In this document: piece after piece, positions 1 through 28,364 of the stretch
How the letters are laid out: the number at the start of each line of letters is the position of its first letter
Position numbering within the stretch: the stretch's first letter is position 1
NCBI GenBank assembly: GCA_008632985.1
Contig: QPGO01000315.1
Location: 62,001-90,364 of the forward strand
From: Psammoneis japonica
Taxonomy: Eukaryota
Direction: 5' to 3'
DNA: 28,364 nt
Program-made: the position numbers and the translations under genes
Notes under the pieces: model-generated
The model's database searches: none
What the model was told of the DNA's origin: nothing
The model's input: only the letters and a program-made list of their open reading frames with translations

Positions 1-1984
1 GTCTGACAATCGCTGGAGCGCGTCTTTTAACTTCCTTGTCAGCTCCACAACTTCGTGGTGCCACGGTGTATTGGACATGTTGAGATTGGAAGCGTCCGAC
101 TTTCCACAAAAGGTGACGCCCTTGACCTCAACCAGGGAGCAGTGGCCCAGAGCAATGAGCTTGGCGTATCCATCCACTTCGTCCGAGTTCCATCCCTTTA
201 CCACGGTCAAACGAGCCACGGTTCGCTGTCCCTTGTCTTTGAGAGAAACAAGAGATTGCTGCAACCGCTCCCAGGCATCCTTAAAGAGAGGCCTGTCAAT
301 GGCTTCCAAACTTTCGGGCGTTGGAGCATCGACACTTACATAGAGCTGCGTAATGGGTCGAAGAGATGAAATGGCTTGTGGGTGCTGCCCGTTTGTGACC
401 AAAAATGTGGAAATCTTGCGTCGATGAAGCTCACCCAAGAGCTCTCCGATGCGCGGGTACATGATTGGTTCTCCGACAAGGCTCAGTGCACAGTGTCGCA
501 CCGTGTGAGCTTCAGACCAGCGATCCATACGTACACCGGGAATACCCTTTGCTTCCTTGATCATTTTGATGTGCGTCTTTACTGCTTCGTCTACAATAAA
601 GTAAGGATCGTCCGTCTTCCAACGCCATTCCTTTCCAACAGGATTCTTATGATGTCGCCAACAAAAGACACCTATGTCGATAAAAAAATAAGAGCAATAG
701 AGACCAACATGTAAAGTGAGAAATGATAAAAAATGAATAGAGAGGTCAAGCAGTCGCAGCAAATAACGTACACTTATTTGCACACGCGAGGCTCGGGGTT
801 GCCTCCATACACTGATAGCTCGTGATGCCATAGTGAGTATGCTTGTAACAACCACCTCGCCCACGCAACTGATTCTTTGTCCATCGGCACAACTTTACAG
901 CACTGTGTGTTCCAATGAGTTTGTAACCTTCCTTCTTGAGAGCGGCGGCCTGAGTCGGTGTCACCATTTCGGTTACTCTTTTGACTTTGTCTTTTTTGAA
1001 GAGGCCTTTAACGAGTCTCCAATGTCTTCCAATCCATAACTTCTGGTTCCTTTTCGTCTTCCATATCTGATTCGTCAGTGTCGTAGTAGTCCTCGTCATC
1101 ATCTTCAGGATTGCGCTCTGCATCAGTGGTAGGCGGTGTTTGACAACACGACCCTCCGTGGCTTCCGAAGCTTTGTTGTTGTCCTTACAGGCACATGAGT
1201 TACTCACAGGTTCCACCATGACATCAATTCGTGTGATAACATCCTTCATCCATCGATCAAAGGTTGCTTTATGATCTCCGACCGAGTCGTCTCCTACACC
1301 CACAGGCCCAAGCGTTTTGGCTCCCAGCTTTCGTGCCTGTACCCACGCCTCGTGTGCTGGTTTGCCCATGGTATCATCGCCATAGGCGGAACTACCCATT
1401 CCAAACACTGCAACACGGAGTTGAGTCGATTTGAGGGGATTTTTCTCAATACGCCAGTCGTGAAGCATTTCATGCAAACTCTGTTTTAAAGTGGTAGCTG
1501 CCGACTCGGGCCAAGTCCCTCCCGTATAGGTGGGCAACACCCACACAACAATAGGCGGGAGTAGCAGCAGCGAGTCGTCGTCGGTTTTATCCTGATCTTC
1601 GTTATTCAAAAGTTCATCCCACCAATCCCATTCGTCAACCTTTCCCATTTGGATCGTGCTTGTGTGGGAAGCAATCGATGCATGAGACTTTAACCTATGG
1701 TACAAATTCTCTGCCAGTGCCGCACACGTGCCAGTAACAGAACCATGAACAATCGAAATGGTGCCTCGAACTAAAATGCGGTCTTTGCAGGGAGTTTTTT
1801 CTTCCTCGAAAAAATCCTTTTCGGGTTTTGGCAACGTCCGTTTTGCGATTGTTGTTGTTGTGGGTGCTGTTTCATTCTTTGTCTTTTTTCGGCGAGACCA
1901 CACCACACCTCCAATCGCCACCACAAATACTACTGTCACGATGGAAGCAGACAAGGCTGCATCTCCTCCGCGACTACGAGCCAT
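1..1984 (-). CDS. TYW1: tRNA wybutosine-synthesizing protein 1 (N-terminal TM anchor, flavodoxin domain, radical SAM domain); 3' end runs off the window
   Basis: Flavodoxin-like motifs (GSVTGT, PTYTGG, AVFGMGSSAYG), then KEGYKLIGTHSAVKLCRWTK...RGRGGCYKH..YGI.S.QCMEATPSLACANK. A GT-AG intron at 771..672 joins this to CVFCWRHHKNPVG, giving the CxxxCxxC motif (CANKCVFC), followed by HCALSLVGEPIMYP and FLVTNGQHP. Apparent compensating frameshifts at about 970-1160 in the acidic linker. Confidence 0.95.
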
Positions 1985-2685
1985 GGTTGACTCAATTCAA
2001 CCTTACTTGTTACTGCACCTTCATGAAGAAAAAATTGGAAACAGTGTTGAGATTAGATACGGTAGATGCGACCGGGTTCGATTGGTTCAGCAAACGGAAT
2101 CTCACTTTCTTCGACCTCACCAAATGACCTGGCGGAGATCGCGTCAGCAGAACTCCGCATTCCTTTTAATTTGGGACCAAACCGCGAAAGTTCTGTCACT
2201 ATCGATCCTCGTTCGCACTCCTAACAACGTCGCAATCAAAATCAGTTGATATTGGATTTGCACAAAACAAGAAGATAAAAGGCAAACAAAAGATGCTCTT
2301 TGAAATGATTCTCTAGCTCTTTTTAAATTTTCTCCAAGGCTCTGAGACAATCAGTTTCTCACGCTAACCTCGGGTGTGTGCACTTGCCGAGAAACAGCTC
2401 GTTGCCGATTGAAACATGTGGGGCAAAAAGAAGCAAAAATGGAGTATTTCTTGAGATAGAGAAAAAGCCTTAGGCACACAGAAGAACTACCGTATAAAAT
2501 ATCTAAAGAATTGTACCATACACGATTGAGATTTTTTTCTCAGCACAAAAGATTGCTTTCTGTTGACAAAACACCACGACTGTCACAACTCACGTTTACA
2601 AACTAATTTAGAAAACTTACAACACTGGAATCCTACCAGAGATTAAACATTATTTCACAGGACAAATCACACACGGAGAAAAATC

Positions 2686-13252: not shown

Positions 13253-14066
13253 CTTGTCTCGTGCGTTGCTCTCTTTGAATTTTGTGAGACGATTTCAAGC
13301 CAAAGCTTAGATCAACCATTGAAGAATAGAGTGAAATGACTTCGACTTTGTTTCATTGCTGCCGAACAGCAGTATAGTTTTTACTTTTGGGTTCGAGGAT
13401 CAAATGCAGGGAAAGAGGGAAAGTCATGCTTGACTGAAGCTTGTTCAAGCGTGAATGCTTGCAAACATTTATAGCCGCGCACAGTCACGTTCGTTTGTTT
13501 GGATTGCGGTGGATAGAAAACATGTCAGCTTGATCAACTTTCGCGGTTCGCGTTTGTTCTTGGCGGATCGCGGGCGGGTTCGCGGTGAAATGGTGAAATG
13601 GCTTCCCGCATGCATTGTTGCTTGAATTCTGCTTTGCTGTCAGTTTGTCTGTCACTCCACAGATGGAATGAAGAGAGTCGTCGCCTGTTTGGTTTTGTTT
13701 CTTGCATTGCTGGACCCTGTGTTCCAGTTTGGGATCAATTGCAGGGAAAGTGGGGCAATCATGCCTGAGCAAGGAGAGTGTGAGTGAGGCAATTCTTGCG
13801 AACATTGCATGTCTGCAATGCTGGCTTTGTGGCATCTTCATCTTGTTGTTTCGGCGCCGCTGGCGCGTGTTTGGGTTGGAGTGGGCTGCACAGCAGCGAA
13901 TTTGAGGAATGTGTTGGCTTTGATTGATTGGTTTTCAGCACTCACTTTTGCAATTTGAAGATCCATGGGAATTGCCATTTGCACTTTTTAAGAATGACTT
14001 CGTGCTTGGAAGGACCCCATGTCTGTCCCGCTGCCCCCCCGGTCTCCTGCTGCCATGCCGCCGGGG

Positions 14067-14387
14067 CTTGATTCGAGCTGCTCTCAAGCAGTTGACCAGA
14101 GTCATGGACACACTGAGGGCTGCTGCTCTGCCAACATGTGCATGTGTCCAGCTTTGTTCTCTGGGGGTGGCCTTCTCCATGCACTGGGGGCTGCTGTTCA
14201 TCCATGAACAGCGGCTTTGTGCATGAAAGGGAGGGCCCCTGCATCTGCTCCGCTCATCGGTCTGTCACTCAACCTTGACTCAAGCTGCTCTCTTGCAGTT
14301 GGTCAAAGTTGTGGCTGGACACATGGTGCTGCTGCTCTTCTGACTTCTGATGTGAGTGCACACCCTGCTTGTTCTCTGGGGAGTGGC
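14067..14387. repeat. Diverged direct repeat of about 105-115 bp (14067-14171 and 14274-14387)
   Basis: CTTGATTCGAGCTGCTCTCAAGCAGTTG...GCTGCTGCTCT...TTGTTCTCTGGGG versus CTTGACTCAAGCTGCTCTCTTGCAGTTG...GCTGCTGCTCT...TTGTTCTCTGGGG. Confidence 0.75.
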
Positions 14388-15481
14388 TGCACCCTGTTCT
14401 TGAGGTGCGCAAATGAGAGCAACGAGCTGGCTGAAGAGCAAAGCATGCTGCTGATCCCCCCTGAGCATCATGAGCTGAAATTCTGTGGTGAAATGCCATT
14501 GTCATCTCTCATCATTTCAATCTCACATGATGTGGCCAAGTGTGGGTCACTTTTTTGCCATGTGGTGCTCAGATTTGCTGAAGACTGGGGAGCATGATGG
14601 AAGCAAAATGACAGGGCCACAGGCCACAGGCCACAGGGAGGGTCATTTTAAGGTGTGCAGAGATGTGTTTGCACCCAATGCATTCTGGCCATGGGCAAGG
14701 CTCCATGTGGCATTGGGCTCATGCAAAATCTTGGTGTGAGCACTGCAGCACAAAGCTGCCAGCAGATGACGAAAATGTGCCAATGACCGAGACAACAGAA
14801 AAGGAGAAGTGACATTTTGTGAGCACCCCAAAACTTGTGCACACTTCAAACACATCATGCCCAGCTTGCCCCAGGGCTTTTCCTGATGGTCAGACACCAA
14901 AGAAAACATCCAGCCCATTTTTGTTCTGGCAGGAGGCGAGTGCAGAAATGAAAAGCCTTTGATGGGATTTGAAGTTTGTCACACATGGGTGCATGTGCTT
15001 TGAGGACTGTGCTCACTTCACATCATTTCATTTCACATTGCATGCATGAAGGGCCTTTTGTCCTGCTGCACGCACACTGAGTCCATTGCTCCACATGATC
15101 CACCCCAGGGGCTGTTGTTGGTGTTTTGCTGCTCTGGGAGGTCTGCAAGGATGACTGTGAAAGGAAGCAGCTGTGATCATGGTCTGCATCTTGGGGCTCA
15201 GGGAACACTTTCTCATGTTCATTCACCAATCCTCTGAAATTTGATCGGGCCACCCAACAGACACAAAATGAGAAAGGTTTGGGGGAACTGTCGTCACCTC
15301 TTGCGATGGGTTCCAGTCCTGGGTGGGACTCCGTGTGACATTGGGCCCGTGGAATTCTGCGTGCGAGCTCCGCAGCAAATTTGTGCTGCAATGAAAATGT
15401 GAATGATCGCCAACAGAAAAGGAAGCAATTTTATGAATGCATCTCCTCCTTCACACTTGGAGCACATCATTGATGGTTTGC

Positions 15482-16430
15482 CCGGGTGTGTTCTTCAGAC
15501 ATTGACGCTGCATCCACGGATTCACCAGGCAAAATTGGCAAAAGTCGGGCATGGCAAAAAGTGTGCATTTGGCCCAAATCGATCATTGAGTGCAAATGGT
15601 GGCATCTTTGGGGTCCCTTTAGTGAGCCGAACATGCGCATTTCTCATTTGACCATCACAGGTCCGTCTCATGGGGGGTGTCAAAACGTCGTGCTTTGACG
15701 CGTCTCGAGGATTAATCGTCACACACAGGGGTCACCGATCTTGTGTTTGTTGTTGTTTGTCATCCCAGACGATCACTCATTCGTCAGACATTGTCGGCAA
15801 AGAAACGTGACAACTGCGCTCAGGTGACTTTTATTTGAACATTTAGTGTGAATTGAGACCACGTCATTGATGATGTCATGAGGGTCTTTCTGGGCAGGCG
15901 TGCATCGGAGCTGCAATGCACTGCCTGACACCGGCCTTGTTTGGCGTCAAAGGCTCAACTAAAATGGCAAAAGATGATGTCAGCAACACATTTGGGAAAA
16001 TGTCCGACGTGTCTTCATGTCTCACGGATTTTATTTGTGAAAATGACAAACACTGCATTTGCGGTCAAATGTGGAAACAAAATCATTTGGACTCATCAGC
16101 AGTGCAATGCTCGCGGAAATGATGCGAAAAACAACAAACACTGGATGTGCGTGCTGCACAATTTTGATCAGATCAGTGATGCCTGCAATGTGATCAGCCA
16201 TTGAGGTCACATAAAATTGAAAATTTACACACCAAAGCACGACATTTTGACACACCCGCAAGACGACCTGTGATGGTCAGATGAGAAATGTGCATGTTTG
16301 GCTCACCAAAGGGACCCCAATGACACCATCATTTGCACTCAACCATCGATTTTGACCAAATGCACACTTTTTGCCATGCCCGAGTGTTGCCTGGTGAATC
16401 CGTGGATGCGGTGTTAAAGAATGCACCCAG
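15482..16430. mobile_element. Non-autonomous TIR (MITE-like) element: about 200-bp inverted repeats at 15482-15697 and 16233-16430
   Basis: GCATCCACGGATTCACCAGGCAA...CGGGCATGGCAAAAAGTGTGCATTTGG...GGGGTCCCTTT...TGACCATCACAGGTC occurs on + in the left arm and on - in the right arm. Outer ends are CCGGGTG and CACCCAG. No clear TSD. Confidence 0.75.
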
Positions 16431-17341
16431 CGTGTTTTCATTCTCACAAATGTTGAAAATGGAAAGCCTTTGGCTTCGCAAAACAGGGAGTGTGAAACCA
16501 TTTCGTAGAATGCAACACGTAGAAATGTGCGTGCGTGACATGCAATGCAATCCAAAAAACTGTTGATGTCACAGTGCAGCAGTGCGAGGTCCCACCCAGA
16601 GCTGGAGCGCGTCTTGTGCGCTTGCTTGCGGTTTTTTTAACTCACTGCTCTGCTTGCAAGCAACCCAAAGCACTGCCAGCTGTGGGCTTGGATGTGCCAG
16701 CGCAGCTCTTCAGACCAGAGACAGAGAGCTCAGCAGCACTCGAGAGGGTGGCAAAGCCTGGTGTCTTCTGTGGACAAAGCTTGCAACGCACAGCTGAAGA
16801 TTTGTGTCCAAGTCAAATCTCTGGTTTCTGGCTCCTGGCAAAAGTTTTGGTGCTCCTTCTGCTTTCCACCACAGCTCTTGCCAGGCTGCGGCAAACCAAA
16901 GGCTTTGATTTGAACACAAGTGCTGGGTCCAAAGTGCAGCCTGCATGGCTGGTGGAGAGCCCCAGTGCTCTCTTGGCTGCCAGCAGCCAGTGTGTTTCTT
17001 TCTTTCTGTGGGCCAACACAAGCTCACACAAGCAAAAATGATCTCCCACACCCCTCTATTTCCACTGGCTGCAGTGTCAGCTGGCTGGTGGTGCAGGTGT
17101 TGTGACACCTGGGAGACTGGCGGGCAACAGCTTTGGGTTGCCACCAAACCTGCACTGACCATCGAGTACAACGAAATGACAAGATTCCAGATTCCTTTTG
17201 ATTCACGAGTTCAATTCTGCATTCGTGACTCGTGACTCGAGTCAAAAATCAACAACCAACAACCAACAATAGAGGTACAAGGTACAACCACTGCGGCGAC
17301 AACATTTCGTAACAACAGAACAACAACAATAGCAAGACACA

Positions 17342-17911
17342 ATGGCATCATCCAGTCAACCCCCTAAATTCATCACCAAAGCAGGAGTTACCAGACTCAA
17401 TCCAGCATATCTCGAATGGAAAAAGAAGACTGGTGGCGTCGTCCCAAAAGCTGCGCCAGCAAGCGAACCACCAATAGACAAGATGCTTGTGCAAGTGACA
17501 ATTCAGCAAGGCGAAGGCTTGGTGGCCAAGGATCGTAATTTACTCGGTAAAAAGACAACGTCGGATCCATACGTGGAAATGATTTTGGTGTCGAATCGTC
17601 AAGACCGCAAACTCGGTAAAACACCCACGGTTTACAAGAATTTGTCGCCCACTTGGAATCACAAAATTCAAACGACAATTGGATATTTGGGAAACGCGAA
17701 TGCACAACTAGCCTTTCGTATTTACGACGAAGATAAATTGTCTGATCCTGACAGTATGGGTGTGGTGACGCTTCCTCTTGTTTGGAAGGAGAGTCATACC
17801 AACGAGTGGTATGAAATCCCAAAAAGTTCTGCCAAGAATGCCTCAGGAAGGATACAGATTGAAATTCAAACCCAACTTCATCGTCTCGAGAACCTTCGAC
17901 CATATGTGTGA
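17342..17911 (+). CDS. C2-domain protein
   Basis: 189-aa intact ORF with GEGLVAKDRNLLGKKTTSDPYV, GKTPTVYKNLSPTWN, FRIYDEDKLSDPDSMG and WYEI, i.e. a C2 fold with acidic Ca-binding loops. Confidence 0.92.
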   Translation: MASSSQPPKFITKAGVTRLNPAYLEWKKKTGGVVPKAAPASEPPIDKMLVQVTIQQGEGLVAKDRNLLGKKTTSDPYVEMILVSNRQDRKLGKTPTVYKNLSPTWNHKIQTTIGYLGNANAQLAFRIYDEDKLSDPDSMGVVTLPLVWKESHTNEWYEIPKSSAKNASGRIQIEIQTQLHRLENLRPYV

Positions 17912-18269: not shown

Positions 18270-18800
18270 CCATGGGCAACAGCGCCGGGATCTTTTCTGC
18301 ATAGGTGGGGATGTCTTGAATCAAATGCAGTAAAAAAACTCCTTGCTCCACTTGTCCAAACACCACGTCTGCTGCACCCAGTTCTGGGCAAAACCTCGTG
18401 TTGCAAAATGCCAAACATTGGCAACAGATCCAATGTCCGATGCATCAAGAGTCCCTTGGTTGAATGAGAAAAATTCTTCTTTCATCCCCCCCCTTTTCAA
18501 TCCAAATCGGTGCTCCCATGATTTGTCCTGCATGGCACATCGCTGTCCCATCACCTGGACTTGTCAGCTCCAAACTGGGCAAATTCCCATCCTCCAATGA
18601 CAATTGCCCATGCAATGGCAGTGGGTTGTCATTGTCCATGGTGGGATTGCACTCAATGCTGGCATGCTTCCAAAGTTAGTCAAACAACAGTCCACCACAG
18701 AAAACCCTGTCAGTGGGAGGTGTGTCGGCACATCATCATGAGTGTGAGGTGTCCCATCTGATGTTGACATGCACGCATCCATGGCAACCTTTTGTGCAAT
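18270..18800 (-). pseudogene. Possible decayed cyclophilin-like coding relic
   Basis: Fragments in different frames (TSPGDGT, KEEFFSF...GSVAN, FCNTRFCPELGAADVVFGQVEQG...IQDIPT) occur in the order of cyclophilin motifs (GDGTG, DENF...SMAN, FITT..CPHLDGKHVVFG.V.EG). By-eye similarity only. Confidence 0.3.
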
Positions 18801-18939
18801 TTTTTTGACAAAAAATCCACAATGTTTTTTGTGTCCATCTCAGCAATTAAGAGCAGCATTTCATGTGCTGCAACTCAACCAACTGTGCATCCCCACCCGA
18901 GTCATCAGCACAGCCCACTCCAGCCCCACCAACAAGGTG

Positions 18940-19215
18940 TGACAGAAATTGAAGGCAAATGGCAAGAATTCAAACAATGACTCCTTGCTGCTGTCTAAAT
19001 GGCAGATGAGTCTCCACTCAGAGACCGTCACAGGAGCCAAAAGACGTGCAAGTCAGTGCAATCGGGCTGCTGTTGTCATTCTTGTGAGCCTTGTGGCTCG
19101 AAAGCAAACTGCATCGCGCACGAACGCGCGGAACTAAAGCACACAAAACTGTGCACGGCAAACTAAACAGCGCGCGACATTTCGCGCGCACCTGAATCCT
19201 GTTCAAATCCTGTCA
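18940..19215 (-). repeat. 3' LTR (276 bp)
   Basis: Direct repeat of 25768-26022 with TG...CA ends. Preceded on the minus strand by a short purine run (GGGAAG), a possible PPT. Confidence 0.95.
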
Positions 19216-22200
19216 CTTCCCAGTTTGCTTGAGGAGCCACAGAAACAGATTCGACTTCAGATGGAATGAAGTTCCAGAACATGAGGGGGCGGAGAAGGCC
19301 CCAGATTTGGGAGCAACCCCAATGCTTGCTGAGAATGTCAGCAGGGTTGCGGGAGCCTTCGATGAAGTGGAGCTCAAGGCAACCAGAGGCAATTGCCTCA
19401 TGCACACAGTGGAATGACAGTGCGGTGTGTCGCTTGTGTAACTTGGAGTGTGGGATGGTGGCACTGTCTACAACCGACTTGTTGTCACCGAACATGCAAC
19501 TGATGTTGTGGATCGGGACGCCAAGGCAGCGCAGGGTGATGCGCAGGTCGACAATCTGCTCGACACAAGTCCTTGTGGCAACAAATTCAGACCCGCAGGT
19601 TGCAGTCTCCATGGTGGCTTGCTTCTTGGAGAACCAATCAGCCGGGAATTTGTTGAGGAAGTGGAGCATTCCCATGACAGAGCGTCCGGTGAGCATGCAA
19701 TGACACAAGTTTGCATCGACGCAGTGGGTGGCAGTGACGAACTTGCCAAGGGGCGGTGGAGCATCCTTCGGGATCATCTCTTCTGCTTTGCCGCACACGG
19801 AATGCATCCATTCACAGGCCGGAGCAGGGAGATCCAAACAGTCGGGCTCTTCTGTGCGAACGCAGAGAGCGCCGTGTCGCATCTTGGAGAGGCACCCACA
19901 GACACGTTTGGCACGATCCAAGTGGCCTTGACGGGGCGCAGCTCGGAAGCTAGAGAGTGACATGACGGCCGTGGCAATGTCAATTCAACCAAGGGACACT
20001 GCCCATTGGAGTGAACCAACAAGAGACTGGAACTTGTGAATGCCATCGGGCCCCAGCAGTTCGGAAGTGTCCAGTTCGGGGTGGTCACCCTTCTCCAGAG
20101 GTGACAGGGCATTGGCGGCAGGTTTCTCCCCAAACAGTCGGGTGCAGCTGTTGACCATGCGCTTGATGCACTTGCGCGGAGACAGGCACAAGGTGCCATT
20201 GGGATCCCGGGAAAAGTCGCAGCCCAGATGGAACTCAATGGGTCCCGCACCCTTGAGCTTGAACTTGCACTTTTCCGTGAGAGTGTCGACGAAAGATTGA
20301 GGGTCCTTCACAGCAATGGCAAGGTCATCCACATAGACGGCAATGCACCCACAGTGGTCGCCGTTCCTGCGCATCCAAATGTTGGGTTCGGCGCGGCAGG
20401 GGAAGAAGCCTTCAGCTCGCAGGCAGTCGGCAAAGCGCTCGTGCCAGTGGAGACCGGAGCTGCGCAGTCCATGCAGGGCCTTGTGGATGACAAGGATGTG
20501 TCCTTCGAGTTTGCCAAATTTGGGTCCGGCTGCAATGTAGAGCTTCTCCTTGGTGGTGGCTTCAAGGTGGGCATTGCCAATGTTGGTGGCCCATGTCTCC
20601 AACTCGTTGAGTTCGGCCAGGAAAATCATCAGCCGAAGGCCACGGAGGGAGACTGCTCCGGAGCAGACACTGTCGATGGGTGCGTCCGTGAGGTGCCCAT
20701 CGGCTGCGAGTCGTGCCTTGTGGCGACCGTCGTGTTTCACGTTGCACACTGGGTGCACTCGGATCTTCTTGTGTCCCGCAGGAGGAGCGGAAGACTCGAA
20801 GGGCCCGCAGTCATGGAAGACTTCGTATTCCTCGAGTTGGTCCATCTCGAGATTAGTTGCGTCTCCCCATTTGCGGTTGCCGTTGCATTCGTCCAGTGAC
20901 ATGGCATGTTTGCAGTTCTGGGGAACTTCGCATCCGCACTTGCAGTGAGGTGCAGTGCGGAAGGAGCAAAGCTTGGCTTGGTTGGCCATGCGAAACAGCT
21001 TCTTCTGGCGCCTCGCGATGGTGCGGAACCGCTTCCAGCCATCAGTGTCGAGAAGTCCGTTCTCTCGTGCATGGATGGCGCAGGTGACGGGGTCTTCCTT
21101 GGCGATGATGGCAAGAGGCTCGGACGTGATCTCCCCACTTTCCCATTCAAGCACAATGTTGTAGCTTGAGCCTTTCCAGGTTGGGTCATGAGGCTTCAGA
21201 GGTCCTTCGTGTGACACGATGCGTCGAAATTTCCAAACAGCAGTGTCTTCGTCTTCTTGCTCAATGTGATTCATGATGTCGTTGCAGGCAAGGACTTCCT
21301 CGTGTTCATCGTTGTTGACAGAGCAGACGAACTTAGTGAGCTCGGGATTGCCGTTCACTTTCCATTCGTGGTCTTCAATGGCCTTGACGATGCGAGCCAT
21401 GTGGCATTGTCCGTCCTCTTGTGGCTGCATGAGGAAGGTGCGTCCGATGATGTCTTGCGGATCGAAAACTGGCATCTTGGGTGTCCTGATCTCCCCATCA
21501 GGAGAATCGACGGGGTTGTCGTCATGGCGAGATTTGATGATGGGTTCAGGTGGCTCCCCATCAGGAGGATCAAGACGCAGGTTTCGAACCGCAGGATCGG
21601 TGGTGGTGGATCATACGTTGGACCGGCCGAGGATCTTCTGAGTCTCATCAGAGAGAATCTTGAAGGTCATCTGGTGACCAACGTGCTCAGCAATGCCAAC
21701 AAAGCGTCCACGCAACTCACGGGATTCGGACAGCCAATCGGAGTCATCGAGGTGGAAGCACACGGGTTCCCACCAGTGAAAGCAAAGCAATGGGCTGATG
21801 TCTGGGGTGGAGCCAGTGAGAGTCTCAAGGGGTGTGTGCCAGTGGAGACGTGGAGACACTGCATGGTTGAGTGTGAAGCACACGCACATGAGCGCCAGCA
21901 GCCATGTGTGGGCAGGCGAACCGAAATGATCCATGACAGTGTTCGCCATGCGCTTCACGGTCTGGTGTCGACGCTCGGCAAAGTTTTGGTGTTGCTGGTG
22001 AGGCTCACTTTGCCAGCTGGAGATGAAGAGGGCTCGTAGGATCCCAAGCACCTTGTTGCTGATCTCAACTTGAGCACGGTCGCCAATGAGTTTGGATGGG
22101 GCACCACGCTCACGGATGTGATCCTCGAGTGTGTTGACAAACTCCTTGTCCGTCTTGGTGCCACAGACGTCAGTGACGGTGGACTCGGTGCCAACAAACA

Positions 22201-24832
22201 GTTGGGCGCTGGTGCAACCAGAGTCGACGGCTGGGGTGTCGGCACAAACGGTGTCAGTGGCGACAGGCTCGTTGCGGCGGTGCACATCAAGGGCGGGGTT
22301 GGGTGATTTGCAGGCCTTCCTAAGGTGTGTACCGGCGGGCATGCGGACGTGCTGCGTGGTGCAGTCAAAAGTACGACGAACCGCATCGGTGGGTGGGAAG
22401 CCAAAGTGAGGCCGAAGAGACTCGAAGGGGGGGTCCTTGGGCTGCACAGTGCGCTCCGGGGGCGGAACGTCGTTGTCCTTGGGGTCAATCGCGTGTAGAT
22501 GACACTCGTAGAACACGTCGTCGTTCGGAATGAGGTGATCATCGAGGGCGGACGCGTGATCGGCAGACAAGGAAGCGGACATGATGGTCTCATTGACAAC
22601 GACACGATGACGGTAGTTGCCGCATTCGTCAAATGGGTTGGCAGTGGGATCGTCCTGCAGGTCAGAGATCGCGTCGCACCACTGGTTGTCGTCAGTGACA
22701 GAGTGATCGAGGACGGAAGGATCCCATGTGTCATCACCGGTGAGGATGACATGGGGCAGGGTGTCCCATTCGGCATCAGTGCAAGGTCGCATGGCAACAC
22801 AAGGCAGGCCGCCCTTGATGTCAATGGGGATGACACAGCCATCAGGAGTGGCAATGCGTTGCAAGCCGTCAAGCACCTTGACAGAGTGATCGTTGACATC
22901 CTGTTTGCACCACTCGAGCTGGCCGCAGGAATGGATGGTCTTGCCCTTGCCCGTGCATGCGCACTGATGGAGGATGGCGATGACGGGACCACGCTGGGTC
23001 TCAATGACGGCACCCGCAGTGACAATGGGGATGTCCACCAATTGATGGTCGTCAATGCCCTGAACGTCGACTTGGCAAGAGGTGCGTGCAATGACGCGAA
23101 CGTCGTCGCCAGCAATGCCGCCGTTGGCCCCACGATCGACTGGAGCACCAGTGCGTGTGGAGCGATGAGCAGAGGCAGAGCAAATGACATTGTGGTCAAC
23201 AACGCGACGGTGAGTGCGGCCGTTGAGTTCCATGTCATCGGCAGAAGCTGGCGGGGTAGAGGGAGCGGCAGATGGCCCTGGTCGACTAGCATTGGGGGCT
23301 TGGTTAGGAGACAACAGACGTTGCAGATCACCGGGTGGCAGTGGCTTGCGCTTGGTGAGGTGCACCAGGATGGGATTGTCCGAAGTGGCATCCACACTTG
23401 GAGCGGAGTCACCAGAGTCAGCAGGAGTCGTGTTGGACAAGTTGACATCACCGTCACTGCCAAGGCGTTGGTCGTGAAGGTTGGCCGCAACGGACTCATG
23501 GAAGTTGCTGGCTCGCGGGTTGCGGGGAGGTGGACGAGAATGCTCAAGGATGATCGCCTTGGAGGAATGGGGCAACGAATCCCAAATCCGTTGGTGGTCG
23601 GGAGGGAGACGTTTCCATTGGTCACCGGCGAGGCTGGGACCACGGGTGCAGGCAGCATTGGCCTGAAGGACGTCAATGTCGCTGTCAATGTCGCAGAACA
23701 CATCGTCGGACGGTTCCTCGGAGCAGACGTCGTGTGCGTGTGTGGCGAGTTGGGGAGCTCGAGGTGTTGTCTTGGGTTGAAACGCACTGTCGCATTGAGC
23801 CGCCACGGAGAGGAGCAAGCCACAGTGTTGATCGTGTGTGAGGCTCTTGCCACTCTGCGTACGATGCTGATCAGCTTGGTTCTTGACAGCACGGAGTTCC
23901 TCGACAGGATGCACGGCATTCTCGAGCATGACACGCTTCTGTCCTTCAGAGAAGTGGTCACTGGCCGGGATGAGTGCCTCGCACTTGCGCAACTGATCTT
24001 GCCAATGAAGGATGAACCCGTGGGTTGGACCTTTCCAAGTGCCATCACCAAGACGTGCGGTGGTGAGGTGCGTGAGCAAAGTGGAGGACTCGACAGATGC
24101 GCGGGTGGAGGCGAGCGCATGCTCAGACAAGGCGCGGTGGATGGTCTGGGCATCAGAAGACCCCACATTTTCGCGAATGAGAGCCTTGCCCTTGTCAGTG
24201 AGAAGGATGCATTCGAAGACGGCGAACATGTGCTTTTGCTGTTCAGCAAAGAGCAGTTTGTCTTCGGGGCTGGTCGGTTTGTACAACGAGTCTAGAACGC
24301 ACTTGACGTCTTGGGCACGGGCTTGTGCCACAAGTGAGGTGTGCCAAGTGTGCCACTGCTTGTCGGATTTGAGAGCCGTGAAAGCGGTGGGGTCACGCTT
24401 GATGCCTCACTTGAAGTCTCACACCGGGTTGCGTGCCTTGGTCGGGTTGGTGACATGCGGAGGTGCGAGGGGTGAGCTGCTGACGGACACAGAAGACATG
24501 TGGTCGGGGCTGAGGCGGCAGGCAAGGAACTCGTCATGCGTGAACAACGAGGAGTCATTGGCAACGTCAAGACCTTCATGTGCTTTGACAATGTGCAGAC
24601 CAATTAGAGCTGCTAACATGTTCTTATAACCGCGGGGCAAAGGGATCACATTGGTGCCGTTGTCGTGCTCAAGCGAGTCGATTTGGGATGGCATGAACGT
24701 GAACAGTTCTTGATGCGAGTCCGTGCCGTCTTGGGTCAAAGCCAAATGAAGAGGGCTCCCAGCACCTTGGGCAAGCACGGCTCCAACAACATGCTCGAAG
24801 CCATCGGTTTGTTGCTGACGAGTGAGAACCAT
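19163..24832 (-). pseudogene. gag-pol polyprotein in a single reading frame, broken by four in-frame TGA codons
   Basis: gag DFK*GIKRDP...AQARAQDV; protease VDRGANGGIAG; integrase ATDTV...GDRAQVE...SEPHQQHQNFAERR; RT KHDGRHKARL, KALHGLRSSG, YVDD; RNase H VDANL...TGRSV, GSEF, FGDNKSVV, NPADILSKHW. The ORFs 24419-24862, 21611-24331, 19985-21475 and 19163-19963 are all in one frame. Stops at 24421-24419, 24409-24407, 21613-21611 and 19987-19985. Confidence 0.95.
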
Positions 24833-24881
24833 GGCAGACAAAAGTGGTGTCAGGACAAGCAATTCTTGTTGGGAAGCGAAG

Positions 24882-24944
24882 GCAGACTTGAAACTTGGGT
24901 GAGAACAGACTTGACTTGAAACAGACTTGACTTGAAATCTTGAA
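24882..24944. repeat. Short ACTTGA/AACAGACTTGACTTGA repeats in the retrotransposon 5' leader
   Basis: GCAGACTTGAAACTTG...AACAGACTTGACTTGAAACAGACTTGACTTGAAATCTTGAA, about 50-110 nt upstream of the gag ATG. Confidence 0.75.
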
Positions 24945-25750
24945 CTACCTTAAAATCAGAAGTCGCTGGGCTGTGCCATCCCGTTCATTGTTGAGTGCTA
25001 AACTTCCCATCCGGTCCGTAGAGTTGTGCCGGCACGTCCGAACCCGCAGCCAGCGGCGCTTTGGGTTGCTTGCGAGCGGAGCAGCGGGTTGTAAACCCCT
25101 GCAGGCAAGCTGACCAGAGGTGGACAAGACCCCCGAACCATTCTCATTTTATGTCGGTTGGATTTCCCGATCAGGCTGGCCAGTTGATGTGGGCGTCAGG
25201 CGCTGTGGACGAACGAACAAACGCGGGAAAACACCCTCGCCCCAACGCAGGCTGCAATCACGGCTGCTTGCTCTCACAGTCGTCCTCGTGGACCTGGCAG
25301 AACTGCAGAGCACCAGCAGTCTGGGGTAGATCAGGTGCAATGGACTCGGTGTGCTTGTAGAGTGGTGGCAAAACCGCAGTCCGAAGAGTGGGTGCAAGTT
25401 CTTGGCCGTGAAGATGTGTGCATGTGTGTGTCTTCAGCGACGAAGATCCTTGAATGTGTGGGGTTCTTGACCATCAACCGATGAATGGGCACATCAAGGG
25501 ATGAGGATCAAGGATGGACTTGGACATGACCGTTGAATGCATGTCTTCAGCGATCAAAGGTGGCACAATCAATCCAGATGTCCAGCGGCAAGGGGACTTG
25601 ACGGTGACGTTAAATTCCTGCCGATGCCTGGCATTGAACGCGCGTAGACTTGCCGATGTACGTAGAACATGTGTGGAGGTCCACGCAGAATTGAAAAGCG
25701 TCGTCGGTAAATCAACGACGACGATGGCGGTTGCTCAATGGGTTGACAAT

Positions 25751-25767
25751 GAGCAAGACTGTTGATC
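25751..25767 (-). promoter_or_regulatory. Putative primer-binding site complementary to a tRNA anticodon arm
   Basis: Directly abuts the 5' LTR. Minus strand reads GATCAACAGTCTTGCTC with no TGG; its complement reads CAAGA-CT-GTT-GA-TC, which resembles a tRNA anticodon stem-loop. Confidence 0.5.
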
Positions 25768-26022
25768 TGACAGAAATTGAAGGCAAACGGCAAGAATTCA
25801 AACAATGACTCCTCACTGCTGTCTAAATGGCAGATGAGTCTCTGCTCAGAGACCGTTGCAGGAGCCGAAAGACGTGCAAGTCGGCACAATCAGGCTGCTG
25901 TTGTTATTCTTGTGAGCCTTGTGGCCGCGAACGCGCGGAACTAAAGCACACAAAACTGTGTGCGGTAAACTAAACAGCGCGCGACATTTCGCACGCACCC
26001 AAATCCTGTTCAAATCCTGTCA
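25768..26022 (-). repeat. 5' LTR (255 bp; about 21 bp shorter than the 3' LTR)
   Basis: Direct repeat of 18940-19215 with TG...CA ends, followed by the TSD AGGTG. Confidence 0.95.
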
Positions 26023-27439
26023 AGGTGCCCCCAAAGCCACCCAACAAAACTGAGACACCAAAACTGCTGCATGCTCCAAGGCTGCATTGAAACAATTGAG
26101 AGTGCTGCATCCAGACCTCCTCTTGCAAAAGTCCGTGCCATTCCAAAAAGCTCCAACAGCAAGAGAGTGCAGTCTCCCACTTTTAAGAGCAAAACAAAAT
26201 GTGCCAAGCCAATCAAGAATGTCGCTGCCAAGCTGTGTGCACATGTCCCCTTGTGAGAGTTGTGCTCATGCTGGCACCACAAAAAAACAATTGTGCCAGT
26301 GCCAGTTGACAACATGGATTCCCCTCACAAAACTGTCCCTGTCATTTTGCCTGTCCAAGTCTTGGTTGGTGCGCGTCCATTTTGGGCAACTTGACTGTGA
26401 TGGTGGAAAAACCCATGGCCAGAAATAGAAAAAAAAGAAGATGTCCCTTGATCTGCCCCAACTGCCAACACATTTCCACTTGGAGATGAGGGTGCAGAGC
26501 TGCCAAACCGCAGCTGTCAGCAGCTTTGCCATGCAAGAGACTTCTCCAGGGGAGCAAAGCCTTGCTTGCCATTTTGGCTGGGCAGATGCTCCAACTGAAA
26601 TTGCCACAACAATCAAAAGTGCTGCATCTTCTAAAACAGTGAAATGTCTCAACAAGAGGGCCTGTGTTGCTCCAAAGAAAAGAGCATTTTTTCTTGTTCG
26701 AGAGCCAGCGATTCACTCTTGTGCGTCATTTGCAGTGTGCCATCATCCTGAGCGGAGGCTGTGGCATGAAATCTGAGTGTGTCATCTACAAGTTGGGCAC
26801 AGCAGCAAGCCAGTGTTTTGTGTGACTGCCCCATCTCAATGGTTGATGCGGTCGACGATCCCTGCTGTTGGTGTGAGCCATGAAGGACGAGCCCCTCCCC
26901 AATCATGGTGGAAGGCACGGCTTTTTTCAGGCCACTCTGCCTTGGACCTTTTCTCTTTCTTGTCTCAATGAGAAGCATTGTTGGCAGCAAAAGCACAAAC
27001 AATCTTCAAGCGCAAGCAACGTTTGGTTGCAGTCATTCTCGTTCTTTTTTTGTTGTTGGCTCTTGCTGAGCTCGCTCTCTTCTCCCGCCCCAAGTCTTTT
27101 TTGCTGGTGTTTTTCCACTTGCTTTTCAGGACTTCTCCTGTCACCACAATTGAGCCGCTTCTCTGGTGCTTTTAACGCCCAGTTACAATGATCCATCATG
27201 GTGGCTTGCTTCAAAATGTCATTTGGTTAATGAGGCATGAGGTTTGATGACGCTCGCTCCATCATGCGTCAAGCCATCCACGCGCGCGCCGCGCGGCGCC
27301 ATCGTCGGTCAGTCGTACGCGCACGACACACAATACATCATCAATCCTTTTTTTTTGGCGATCGCAACGACATCAACACGAGCCAACACACAAAACCGAA
27401 CAACAACGCGGTCGACAACAAATCTTGCTCTCAACGAAG

Positions 27440-28364
27440 ATGCCAGAGCCTGTTAGTTATGCCGTAGGTGTCAATGCGGGACTTTCTGCGATGAAAATAA
27501 TAGCGGAGTCCACAGGAGCATGGGGGGGATGGATACCGAGATCTGTGCAGGTTGCTAATTTCAGGCGCCTCGTTGACAACAATACGGTGTTGGGCTTCAG
27601 TCCGAACCTCGACCGCAAGAAATACGCGGTTACACCAGTCATACAAGCAATGTATCGATGTAAAGGTGAGGGTGCTGTTTCTGTCGCAATGGTGCCGCCG
27701 GCGCTAGGCAAAACAACTGCAGCCATGTTCTTTTTACGTCACAACAAATCCTCCGTTCGGGGAATCGCCATTTGCCGCTCGCACAAGGGAAGTCCGTATG
27801 TTATGGAAATGTTGGAACTCCTGGGTTTGAATGCTTTAAAGCCACCCCATGGCTGGCTATCATGCCTTATTGATGCTCTGCGGTTTCCTGATCCAGGTGA
27901 CACTAGGAGCAGCTATATTATCCTTGACGAATTTGTGAACGAGACAGGTGATCTGGTTGACTCAAGCCTCGTGGAAACGCTAAAGACTTATTTGCGCAAC
28001 ACTGGTATACGCCTGATTTTGTTGACACCATCTGAAGACTATGCAAACTACTTGTTGACTCTCAATGATTTACAGGGGATACTTCCATTAAATGGAACTT
28101 ATCCAATTGAAAAGTATCCTAACGGGCAGTGGCAGAGCATGCGTTGGTCAGCTAACACGCTGAAAATCGCGGCCAGGCAATGGCATGACTTTTCTGAGTT
28201 CACGGCTGATCAAATAGATAAGGAAGTTGACGAATACCTTGCGTCACTATCAGATGATGACGAAACGCGTTTCCTCAAAGTTGTCGAAGCGATCAAGGAT
28301 AAGCTTGTTCAGGGACACGAGTTACAGCAATTGGATGTCACCGTCTCAGTTTCTGTCGGCGCCG
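27440..28364 (+). CDS. P-loop NTPase (AAA/STAND-like), 3' end off the window; absent from the ORF track
   Basis: Manually translated open frame from ATG 27440 (MPEPVSYAVG...) to the window end. Walker A-like VPPALGKTT, Walker B YIILDE, then RLILLTP. Confidence 0.75.
   Translation, partial: MPEPVSYAVGVNAGLSAMKIIAESTGAWGGWIPRSVQVANFRRLVDNNTVLGFSPNLDRKKYAVTPVIQAMYRCKGEGAVSVAMVPPALGKTTAAMFFLRHNKSSVRGIAICRSHKGSPYVMEMLELLGLNALKPPHGWLSCLIDALRFPDPGDTRSSYIILDEFVNETGDLVDSSLVETLKTYLRNTGIRLILLTPSEDYANYLLTLNDLQGILPLNGTYPIEKYPNGQWQSMRWSANTLKIAARQWHDFSEFTADQIDKEVDEYLASLSDDDETRFLKVVEAIKDKLVQGHELQQLDVTVSVSVGA

Follow-up and report, generated by a model that had tools for sequence, protein, structure and literature searches.

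The window analysed here is a stretch of 28,364 nucleotides from contig QPGO01000315.1 of the Psammoneis japonica assembly GCA_008632985.1 (positions 62,001 to 90,364). At 18940-26022 it holds a dead Ty1/copia-type long terminal repeat (LTR) retrotransposon, on the minus strand, which lies inside an older repeat of the nuclear genome and has lost nearly all of its 5'-TA-3' dinucleotides (TpA, or TA below). A sequence-only reading of this element had proposed a repeat-targeted conversion of TpA to TpG or CpA as an undescribed genome-defence system. We regard it as likely, with good confidence, that a real process of this kind, confined to transposable elements and acting after insertion, has operated in this chromosomal DNA, its chemistry being a separate matter. 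The process is not undescribed, as the same hypermutation has been measured in Bigelowiella natans (Mettrop et al., bioRxiv 10.64898/2026.01.13.699255, main text).

The element is bounded by a direct-repeat pair on the minus strand, a 3' LTR of 276 bp (18940-19215; TA observed/expected ratio (o/e) 0.18) and a 5' LTR of 255 bp (25768-26022), which differ in length by a 21-bp indel. Their termini, TGACAG...CCTGTCA, have the TG...CA ends of Ty1/copia elements, and the target-site duplication AGGTG, whose 5 bp also agree with Ty1/copia, is read directly at 18935-18939 and 26023-26027. A contig derived from the reads of run X1 (depth 48) links 18932 to 26021 and represents the empty site without the copia element; the insertion is hemizygous, with the other allele empty, or the site has a paralogue. 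A single gag-pol frame runs from 24832 to 19166 on the minus strand and is colinear with an intact relative of 1859 aa (P0002), residues 1-1850 of which span 24832-19253 by tblastn. This frame is broken only by four TGA codons, at 24419-24421, 24407-24409, 21611-21613 and 19985-19987. A copia-type reverse transcriptase, Pfam RVT_2, is encoded at 20153-20782 on the minus strand (residues 1209-1418 of predicted protein P0001); the RVT_2 matches, with E = 6.6e-23 and 4.6e-22, the latter being that of P0001, are better than the curated cut-off. Pfam searches for integrase and protease on the window and on P0002 return RVT_2 alone, and a PDB profile search gave nothing useful; hints of an integrase come from colinearity with polyproteins of about 1900 aa and from one homolog labelled 'transposase InsO family' by its source. 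The expected primer-binding site after the 5' LTR (25730-25767, minus strand) lacks the usual TGG start, and a search for tRNA genes found none. The family is strongly repeated in the reads, being represented by 16,638 X1 contig pieces with a summed depth about three orders of magnitude above that of the flanks, which is not a copy number.

Loss of TpA from mobile DNA

Hand counts had given about 30 TA in 19216-24960 as opposed to about 43 in the neighbouring gene at 27440-28364, and the computed values, 29 (o/e 0.11) and 43 (o/e 0.69), bear this out. The whole element contains 48 TA (o/e 0.14), and TA o/e in the host open reading frames (ORFs) of the window is 0.51, 0.54 and 0.53 at the three codon phases (about 0.53). 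CA and TG are elevated in the element (o/e 1.4-1.6), CpG is slightly low (0.81-0.83), AA is not reduced (1.02-1.10), and GC content is 0.57 versus 0.48.

When edges are taken from a 500-bp profile together with the positions of every TA, two TA-poor blocks with sharp limits emerge. Block B (18331-27173) comprises the copia element and the older repeat that received it, the latter at 18331-18939 and 26023-27173 with CpG o/e of 0.14-0.44. Block A (13514-17260) consists of old repeat relics, with o/e values of 0-0.15 for TA, 0.1-0.8 for CpG and 1.5-2.0 for CA/TG, and contains copia-leader-like fragments at 15066-15301 and 16612-16719. All of this older DNA (13514-17260, 18331-18939 and 26023-27173) had escaped the sequence-only reading; it is depleted of CpG as well as of TA, CpG o/e being mostly 0.1-0.4 in these parts (13.5-17.2 kb in the case of block A) and CA/TG rising to about 2.0. 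The blocks are separated by a TA-normal stretch that carries a spared host ORF on the plus strand (17333-17908; Pfam C2 domain, E = 1e-17; TA o/e 0.57-0.66), and block B is followed by the spared host gene at 27440-28364 on the plus strand, which has 12 homologs and no family name. Host genes in the window are thus spared and TA loss is limited to mobile DNA, as in the hypermutation of B. natans. Directly after the relic depleted of CpG and TA, and before the spared gene, comes a dense CpG run of the CGCGCG type (27251-27440, CpG o/e 1.2-1.3), which resembles an unmethylated promoter island next to silenced DNA.

Nested within block A is an element of about 916 bp (15502-16417) with inverted arms of about 190 bp (15502-15697 and 16233-16417, 84% alike) and 9 TA, probably a small inverted-repeat (DNA-type) transposon that is likewise TA-poor. 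This insert is missing from other copies of the surrounding repeat, as evidenced by contig joints such as 15501 to 16424. Its arms were considered as a second clock and set aside, since their differences are mixed, with several transversions, and the arms need not match at insertion. Within the depleted DNA, the stretch 13513-15051 has single-copy read depth. For this reason targeting by repetition, which the sequence-only reading had assumed, is not shown, and silenced or methylated chromatin, which the accompanying CpG decay fits, explains the target equally well.

A homolog search with the element's proteins returned 1511 sequences at E <= 1e-10, the best being 68% identical, and residue content was compared with the 120 of these that were listed. 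The three abutting ORFs of the element (931 + 541 + 273 aa, 1745 codons) contain 7 Tyr, with none in the last ORF (19984-19166), exactly the scarcity previously claimed, although the ORF lengths given with that claim were slightly off. Tyr makes up 0.4% of residues here and 2.9-5.0% in all 120 listed homologs, while the corresponding figures are 3.8% and 0.5-1.6% for Cys and 5.3% and 2.6-4.6% for His. An alignment with 60 full-length homologs defines 733 columns conserved at 80% or more, and the element departs from the consensus at 107 of them. At the 37 columns where Tyr is conserved, the element shows Cys 24 times, His 6 times, Phe 3 times and Tyr 4 times. Changes to Cys or His thus affect 30/37 Tyr columns, as opposed to 67/642 changed columns among the remaining conserved ones other than Tyr and Arg (Fisher p = 3e-21); with Y->F excluded, 30/34 conserved Tyr codons have been lost. 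The mismatch at conserved columns other than Tyr and Arg is 7.5%, and 79 environmental relatives span 0.3-27%, mostly 3-14%. All nine motifs that had been given as ancestral, namely KALYGL, GNAYLEA, ETATYGSEF, YVDANL, SYMFGDN, ERRYQT, HWGY, (S)LVDRG and ARLVADG, are the consensus in the 60 homologs. The changes to Cys and His show no sign of processive single-strand events, with about 10 runs along the element against 10.6 expected (hand count).

Conserved Arg columns bear a second signature, that of CpG decay, with four changes to Cys, four to His and two to stop. Two of the TGA stops fall on such columns, and the stops at 24421, 21613 and 19987 are CGA->TGA events of the CpG type, 24409 lying outside that test, so that ordinary CpG decay has disrupted the copy as well; in other copies the codon at 24421 is CGA. 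Inactivation had been ascribed to missense load rather than to stop codons. The load of Tyr->Cys/His changes is there, but so are the four stops, three of them CpG events.

The LTR pair supplies both the spectrum and the timing. Both LTRs are identical when an element inserts. In this copy 20 of the 255 columns of their alignment differ, and all 20 differences are transitions inside pyrimidine-purine (YpR) steps, which hold 52% of LTR columns; the probability that all 14 underlying events would fall inside such steps is about 1e-4. The events comprise six CA/TG doubles, two TA/CA differences, six differences of CpG against CA or TG, and no others. All differences between A:T and G:C other than those at CpG thus sit at TpA-derived steps and none elsewhere, which is the pattern of B. 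natans, and the CA/TG outcome alternates between the two LTRs 3:3. Since CpG decay alone (12 CpG sites intact, 6 hit once) predicts about 0.2 doubles, the six doubles represent former TA hit independently in each LTR. From six doubles to two singles it follows that each LTR lost about 0.9 of its TA sites, which matches the 30/34 conserved Tyr codons lost, whereas about 0.15 of CpG and none of the other positions changed; this dating is relative only. Because the LTR differences all sit in YpR steps, mostly former TA, the loss took place after insertion, and TA disappeared from this DNA at about 20 times the rate of CpG, in keeping with element-wide o/e values of 0.10 for TA and 0.82 for CpG. 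As had been argued, this signature cannot come from CpG decay or from selection on the protein.

Other copies of the family point the same way. Among the differing places listed, they keep TA at 22870 (all of the depth), 25516 (64%), 25562 (69%) and 19058 (20%), the last belonging to one of the LTR CA/TG doubles (19057/8), and they keep CG at six further sites. In the flank, the empty-site contig departs from the window by CA/TG doubles at 18714/5 and 18841/2. Four X1 contigs of 329-822 bp and depth 31-40 (13709-14528, 14551-15052, 15694-16022 and 16657-17046) reproduce the TA-free DNA with 0 other letters. These matches exclude consensus errors without being an independent confirmation. Taken together, the LTR pair, the TA-keeping copies and the sharp block edges uphold the proposal of a context-specific change from A:T to G:C at TpA that follows insertion and is confined to transposons.

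TA-free DNA offers no TAA or TAG on either strand, so that dead elements retain long spurious ORFs. Overlapping ORFs of 778 aa (minus strand, other frame) and 598 aa (plus strand) are seen at 19163-24406, and gene callers will annotate such ORFs of TA-free relics as genes.

The window also encodes TYW1, permease, EF-hand, metallo-beta-lactamase and LamG proteins. TYW1 (1-1996, minus strand) has its flavodoxin and radical-SAM/wyosine domains on two overlapping ORFs in different frames, which would imply one short intron near 750-890. The named matches of the TYW1 ORF are all to stramenopiles, with the diatom Amphora coffeaeformis the best (E = 2.5e-78), then Tribonema, oomycetes, Ochromonas and the diatom Stephanocyclus; the top identity is 58%. 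These matches identify the host as a stramenopile, most likely a diatom, and exclude Bigelowiella.

Environmental relatives and flanking bases

A metagenome scan yielded 79 loci with 64-69% DNA identity to the window, and their TA o/e ranges from 0.24 to 1.01 (median 0.69), compared with 0.10 for the element. One of these, a copia fragment on a separate tree branch (L059:1-2759, TA o/e 0.31), has Tyr 10 times, Cys 7 times and His 6 times at 23 conserved Tyr positions, so that 13/23 have become Cys or His; none of the remaining 78 loci has more than 2 such changes. L059 is a second, independent hypermutated element.

Two further relatives with intact ORFs, L060 (L060:3-1244) and L028 (L028:235-2580), avoid TA in a different manner. 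With an expectation for each codon phase drawn from position-specific composition, silent and codon-junction TA stand at 0 observed against 35 expected in L060 and at 5 against 73 in L028, whereas the TA of Tyr codons stand at 15 against 24.5 and 29 against 42. Both have normal Tyr content, T at 21% of third positions and ORFs that end in TAA. The copia element of the window is low in both classes (19 against 156 for silent and junction TA, 8 against 92 for Tyr codons), and in the remaining loci the silent-site ratios run continuously to 1.14. In a FastTree phylogeny built from 71 RT-RNase H sequences (branch supports not inspected), the copia element is placed beside L056, then L028 and L060, with L059 elsewhere. 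TA poverty is not an inherited family composition, because L056, the nearest relative in the tree, has a silent-site ratio of 0.97; judging from these sequences, the depletion trait seems to follow hosts rather than element lineages.

The silent sites of the element itself suggest an older episode, the outcomes in this copy being synonymous wherever the codon allows. Its codon junctions have CA at 54 per kb versus 33 in relatives, and third-position TG is raised. Junction changes of the A1->G1 type after T number only 4, and of the conserved N, K, T, I and M codons retained, 3/123 follow T, whereas neutral decay of junction TA at normal density would, by a rough estimate, predict tens of amino-acid changes. 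Silent and junction TA would accordingly have been purged earlier, in a still-functional lineage, and the TA of Tyr codons, LTRs and leader hit after insertion. The depletion had previously been read as mutator decay throughout, and that reading holds for the Tyr codons, LTRs and leader but seemingly not for silent and junction sites. L028 and L060 look like active elements adapted to a TpA-directed pressure, as far as their composition can tell. A strand bias was also sought in codon-phase dinucleotide counts relative to these relatives, and this was abandoned except for qualitative use, the phase-2 TG baseline having a standard deviation of 10 per kb and being confounded by codon usage.

In both blocks together 71 TA survive, and among them a 5' A (equivalently a 3' T) is rare. 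With both strands pooled, TA is followed by T in 13/142 cases in the blocks versus 299/1158 in the host part (p = 3e-6). No ATAT is left among the surviving contexts, and the best survivors are CTAA/TTAG, CTAC/GTAG and TTAA. Were A the target, the order would be TAT > TAC > TAA ~ TAG, which would explain why Y->C outnumbers Y->H by 24 to 6 (binomial p = 0.0014); we treat this as a lead and not as a finding. A split by the previous base (purine, 10 Cys to 4 His; pyrimidine, 14 Cys to 2 His) goes in the right direction and is not significant (Fisher p = 0.38). A flank preference of this kind, if it exists, would be a yardstick for candidate enzymes.

Weighing the explanations

We infer a host process, confined to transposon-derived and probably silenced, CpG-methylated DNA, that would convert A:T to G:C at 5'-TA-3', each TA becoming TG or CA. 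About nine-tenths of the TA that remained at insertion, in Tyr codons, LTRs and leader, would have been hit. CpG decay of the 5-methylcytosine (5mC) type would have run in parallel, about 20 times more slowly, and yielded at least three of the four TGA stops. At an earlier stage, functional ancestors under the same long-term pressure, filtered by selection, would have lost silent and junction TA and kept their Tyr. As to chemistry, we tentatively favour the deamination of adenine to hypoxanthine in DNA, in which case an enzyme of the ADAT2/TadA type would be the likely agent. Hypoxanthine is copied as G, and the natural tRNA substrate of ADAT2/TadA is an A preceded by U. The main alternative, a thymine of TpA that is oxidised or otherwise modified and mispairs with G, appears rather unlikely.

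Several observations weigh against this account or narrow it. Runs X1-X4 come from one sample, possibly the assembly's own data, with no library type on record, so that their support is not independent of the assembly. The comparison with other copies covers 40 of 736 differing places, chosen by support, and the spectrum for the family is thus a sample. Confinement to transposons and the sparing of host genes were judged within this window alone. L059 displays neither the flank effect (25/98, against 26% in relatives) nor the excess of Cys (7 Y->C to 6 Y->H), surviving TA may be newly made instead of resistant, and the sequence cannot tell a lesion at A from one at T. There is also a tension with the older purge, as the LTR seems to have had about 11-17 TA at insertion, and so no purge, though silent coding TA was gone. 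The same contrast is seen in L028 and L060, which keep 5-7 TA per 200 bp just past the ORF end. The LTR TA may be functional, or the coding purge may have an additional cause at the RNA level, such as selection against UpA.

An origin without any mutator, in which a TA-poor family arose through codon usage or selection against UpA in RNA and the Cys and His residues are lineage-specific substitutions, draws on some of these same facts. Intact L060 and L028 demonstrate that functional, Tyr-normal elements can avoid silent TA (0/35 and 5/73 expected), and host genes are themselves mildly TA-poor (0.51-0.54). Such an origin fails to explain why a copy with four stops has lost 30/37 Tyr that are conserved at 80% or more in 60 homologs, why LTR differences are limited to YpR steps, why other copies retain TA and why non-coding relics have lost it, and we consider it very improbable. 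Even less credible is an artefact in which true TA, perhaps carrying a modified base, was misread as TG or CA by base-calling, polishing or a polymerase. The effect is indeed confined to transposon DNA, where base modifications concentrate, and the uncertain library type and provenance of the runs would permit it. Mispairing on two strands would, however, mix CA and TG at each site and break contigs built from 31-mers, whereas contigs of 329-822 bp match exactly across dozens of sites. Copies also differ stably from one another at affected sites, and L059, a metagenome contig from another project, repeats the Tyr->Cys/His pattern (13/23). The changes in B. natans, according to the main text of the preprint, are new mutations that appear in some lines only and were called from Illumina NovaSeq data.

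Two rivals that accept a mutational origin are both improbable, and about equally so. Editing during retrotransposition, by an ADAR-like activity on RNA or by an adenine counterpart of APOBEC on single-stranded cDNA, would precede integration. The element does replicate via RNA and cDNA, editing of cDNA could make LTRs differ, and the excess of Y->C (sense A->G) over Y->H, 24 to 6, is what sense-strand editing would leave. Against this, both directions of change are seen and the LTR outcomes divide 3:3; TA loss extends to flanking relics, to the single-copy-depth stretch 13513-15051 and to the probable inverted-repeat element; and the flank of the empty site has CA/TG doubles of its own (18714/5 and 18841/2). 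The 3'-G preference of ADAR is moreover opposite to what is found here, where TAG and TAA survive best. The B. natans mutations, as the preprint's main text describes, originate in DNA that is already part of the chromosome. The other rival is mutagenesis linked to repair, in which 5mC deamination or demethylation recruits WA->WG synthesis of the Pol eta type, or GC-biased gene conversion acts among copies. TA loss and CpG decay do occupy the same blocks, the reads show a highly repetitive family (again without giving a copy number), and the WA hotspot of Pol eta includes TA. The LTR pair, however, has no AA->AG or other change from A:T to G:C outside TpA (0/20), and AA o/e is not lowered. Biased gene conversion is blind to dinucleotide context and would block the neighbouring CpG decay from G:C to A:T, and in the young element TA loss (o/e 0.10) is far ahead of CpG loss (0.82). 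The hypermutable region of B. natans, a viral insert, is single-copy in the account of the same preprint.

With a TpA-directed host process retained as the preferred explanation, its wider meaning can be sketched. A base-conversion defence directed at TpA may, tentatively, exist in at least two distant lineages of the stramenopile-alveolate-Rhizaria (SAR) group, namely diatom-like stramenopiles and chlorarachniophytes. It would employ an ADAT2/TadA-derived DNA adenine deaminase or an enzyme that modifies thymine, directed to silenced chromatin, and an arms race would have made active copia elements purge every dispensable TA from their genes. If so, there would be a widespread eukaryotic counterpart of repeat-induced point mutation (RIP) with the opposite chemistry, readable in genomes and metagenomes as TA-free, Tyr-poor relics whose only stop is TGA. 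The diatom-like footprint, with one hypermutated and two TA-purged relatives among the 79 contigs, suggests a wider process whose usual targets are transposons. New handles on it include LTR pairs, as internal clocks for the ratio of TpA to CpG rates, and an index of conserved Tyr->Cys/His changes for use on metagenomes.

Comparison with known systems

The process resembles RIP of ascomycetes in being a dinucleotide-specific transition hypermutation that degrades transposons and leaves sharply bounded, skewed blocks. RIP converts C to T at CpA, which makes TpA and stop codons and lowers GC. Here TpA is destroyed, GC rises (0.57), CA/TG o/e reaches 1.4-1.6 and no TAA or TAG can arise, so that the direction is the opposite one, as the sequence-only reading had stated. 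CpG decay through 5mC acts on the same DNA, as seen in the relic CpG o/e of 0.1-0.4, the Arg changes and the 6 CpG-type LTR differences, but it removes CpG and not TpA, and in the young element it lies far behind the TpA process (o/e 0.82 versus 0.10). ADAR and APOBEC3 are likewise deamination-type hypermutators employed in defence against retroelements. They act on RNA or cDNA before integration and on one strand, whereas the changes described here affect both strands of resident DNA and include relics that are not retroelements. ADAR editing would leave sense A->G alone and LTRs identical at those sites, while here changes in both directions are present and 8 TpA-derived steps distinguish the two LTRs; the base change of APOBEC (C to U) is a different one altogether. 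As to sequence context, ADAR favours a 5' U, as stated in bioRxiv 10.64898/2026.01.13.699255 (main text).

A thymine-directed parallel exists in dinoflagellates, another SAR lineage. There a TET/JBP-type enzyme puts 5-hydroxymethyluracil (5hmU) on repeats, and this is needed for transposon silencing, as excerpts of PMC11572971 describe. The likeness lies in the targeting of thymine and of transposons, and it offers a possible route for T->C if oxidised thymine mispairs; the 5hmU of dinoflagellates serves as an epigenetic mark and is not known to cause mutations, and this window offers no evidence on it. Older literature has 5hmU preferring TpA in dinoflagellates, and we know of no 5hmU-type base or enzyme in diatoms.

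The closest match is B. natans. In its mutation-accumulation lines, 231 of 302 new nuclear mutations fell in integrated nucleocytoplasmic large DNA virus (NCLDV) and virophage sequence, and 230 of these 231 changed A to G or T to C, in every case within TpA, at a rate of about 6e-7 per site per generation (bioRxiv 10.64898/2026.01.13.699255, main text). The same text reports that TpA-depleted predicted coding sequences are enriched in reverse-transcriptase and DDE domains, and Mettrop et al. there propose an ADAT2-like DNA adenosine deaminase and draw the comparison with RIP. Their main text, as distinct from the supplements, which may hold flank data, does not treat diatoms, flank preference, LTR dating or counter-adaptation by transposons. 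For diatoms, full-text literature searches brought up neither hypermutation directed at TpA nor transposons depleted of TpA, and the only paper on the phenomenon that they returned was the B. natans preprint.

Shared with B. natans, as far as that text describes it, are the changes from A to G and T to C only at TpA, the restriction to foreign DNA, a rate orders of magnitude above background and, over the long term, a depletion of TpA with a gain of CpA and TpG. The B. natans host is a chlorarachniophyte (Rhizaria), whereas the host here is a stramenopile, probably a diatom. In B. natans the target is a single-copy viral insert that is partly depleted (Rho 0.45); in the present window, LTR retrotransposons and relics are depleted to near saturation (0.0-0.15), with CpG decay alongside. 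The kind of hypermutation is thus already known, and what is new is the lineage, the class of target and the degree of depletion.

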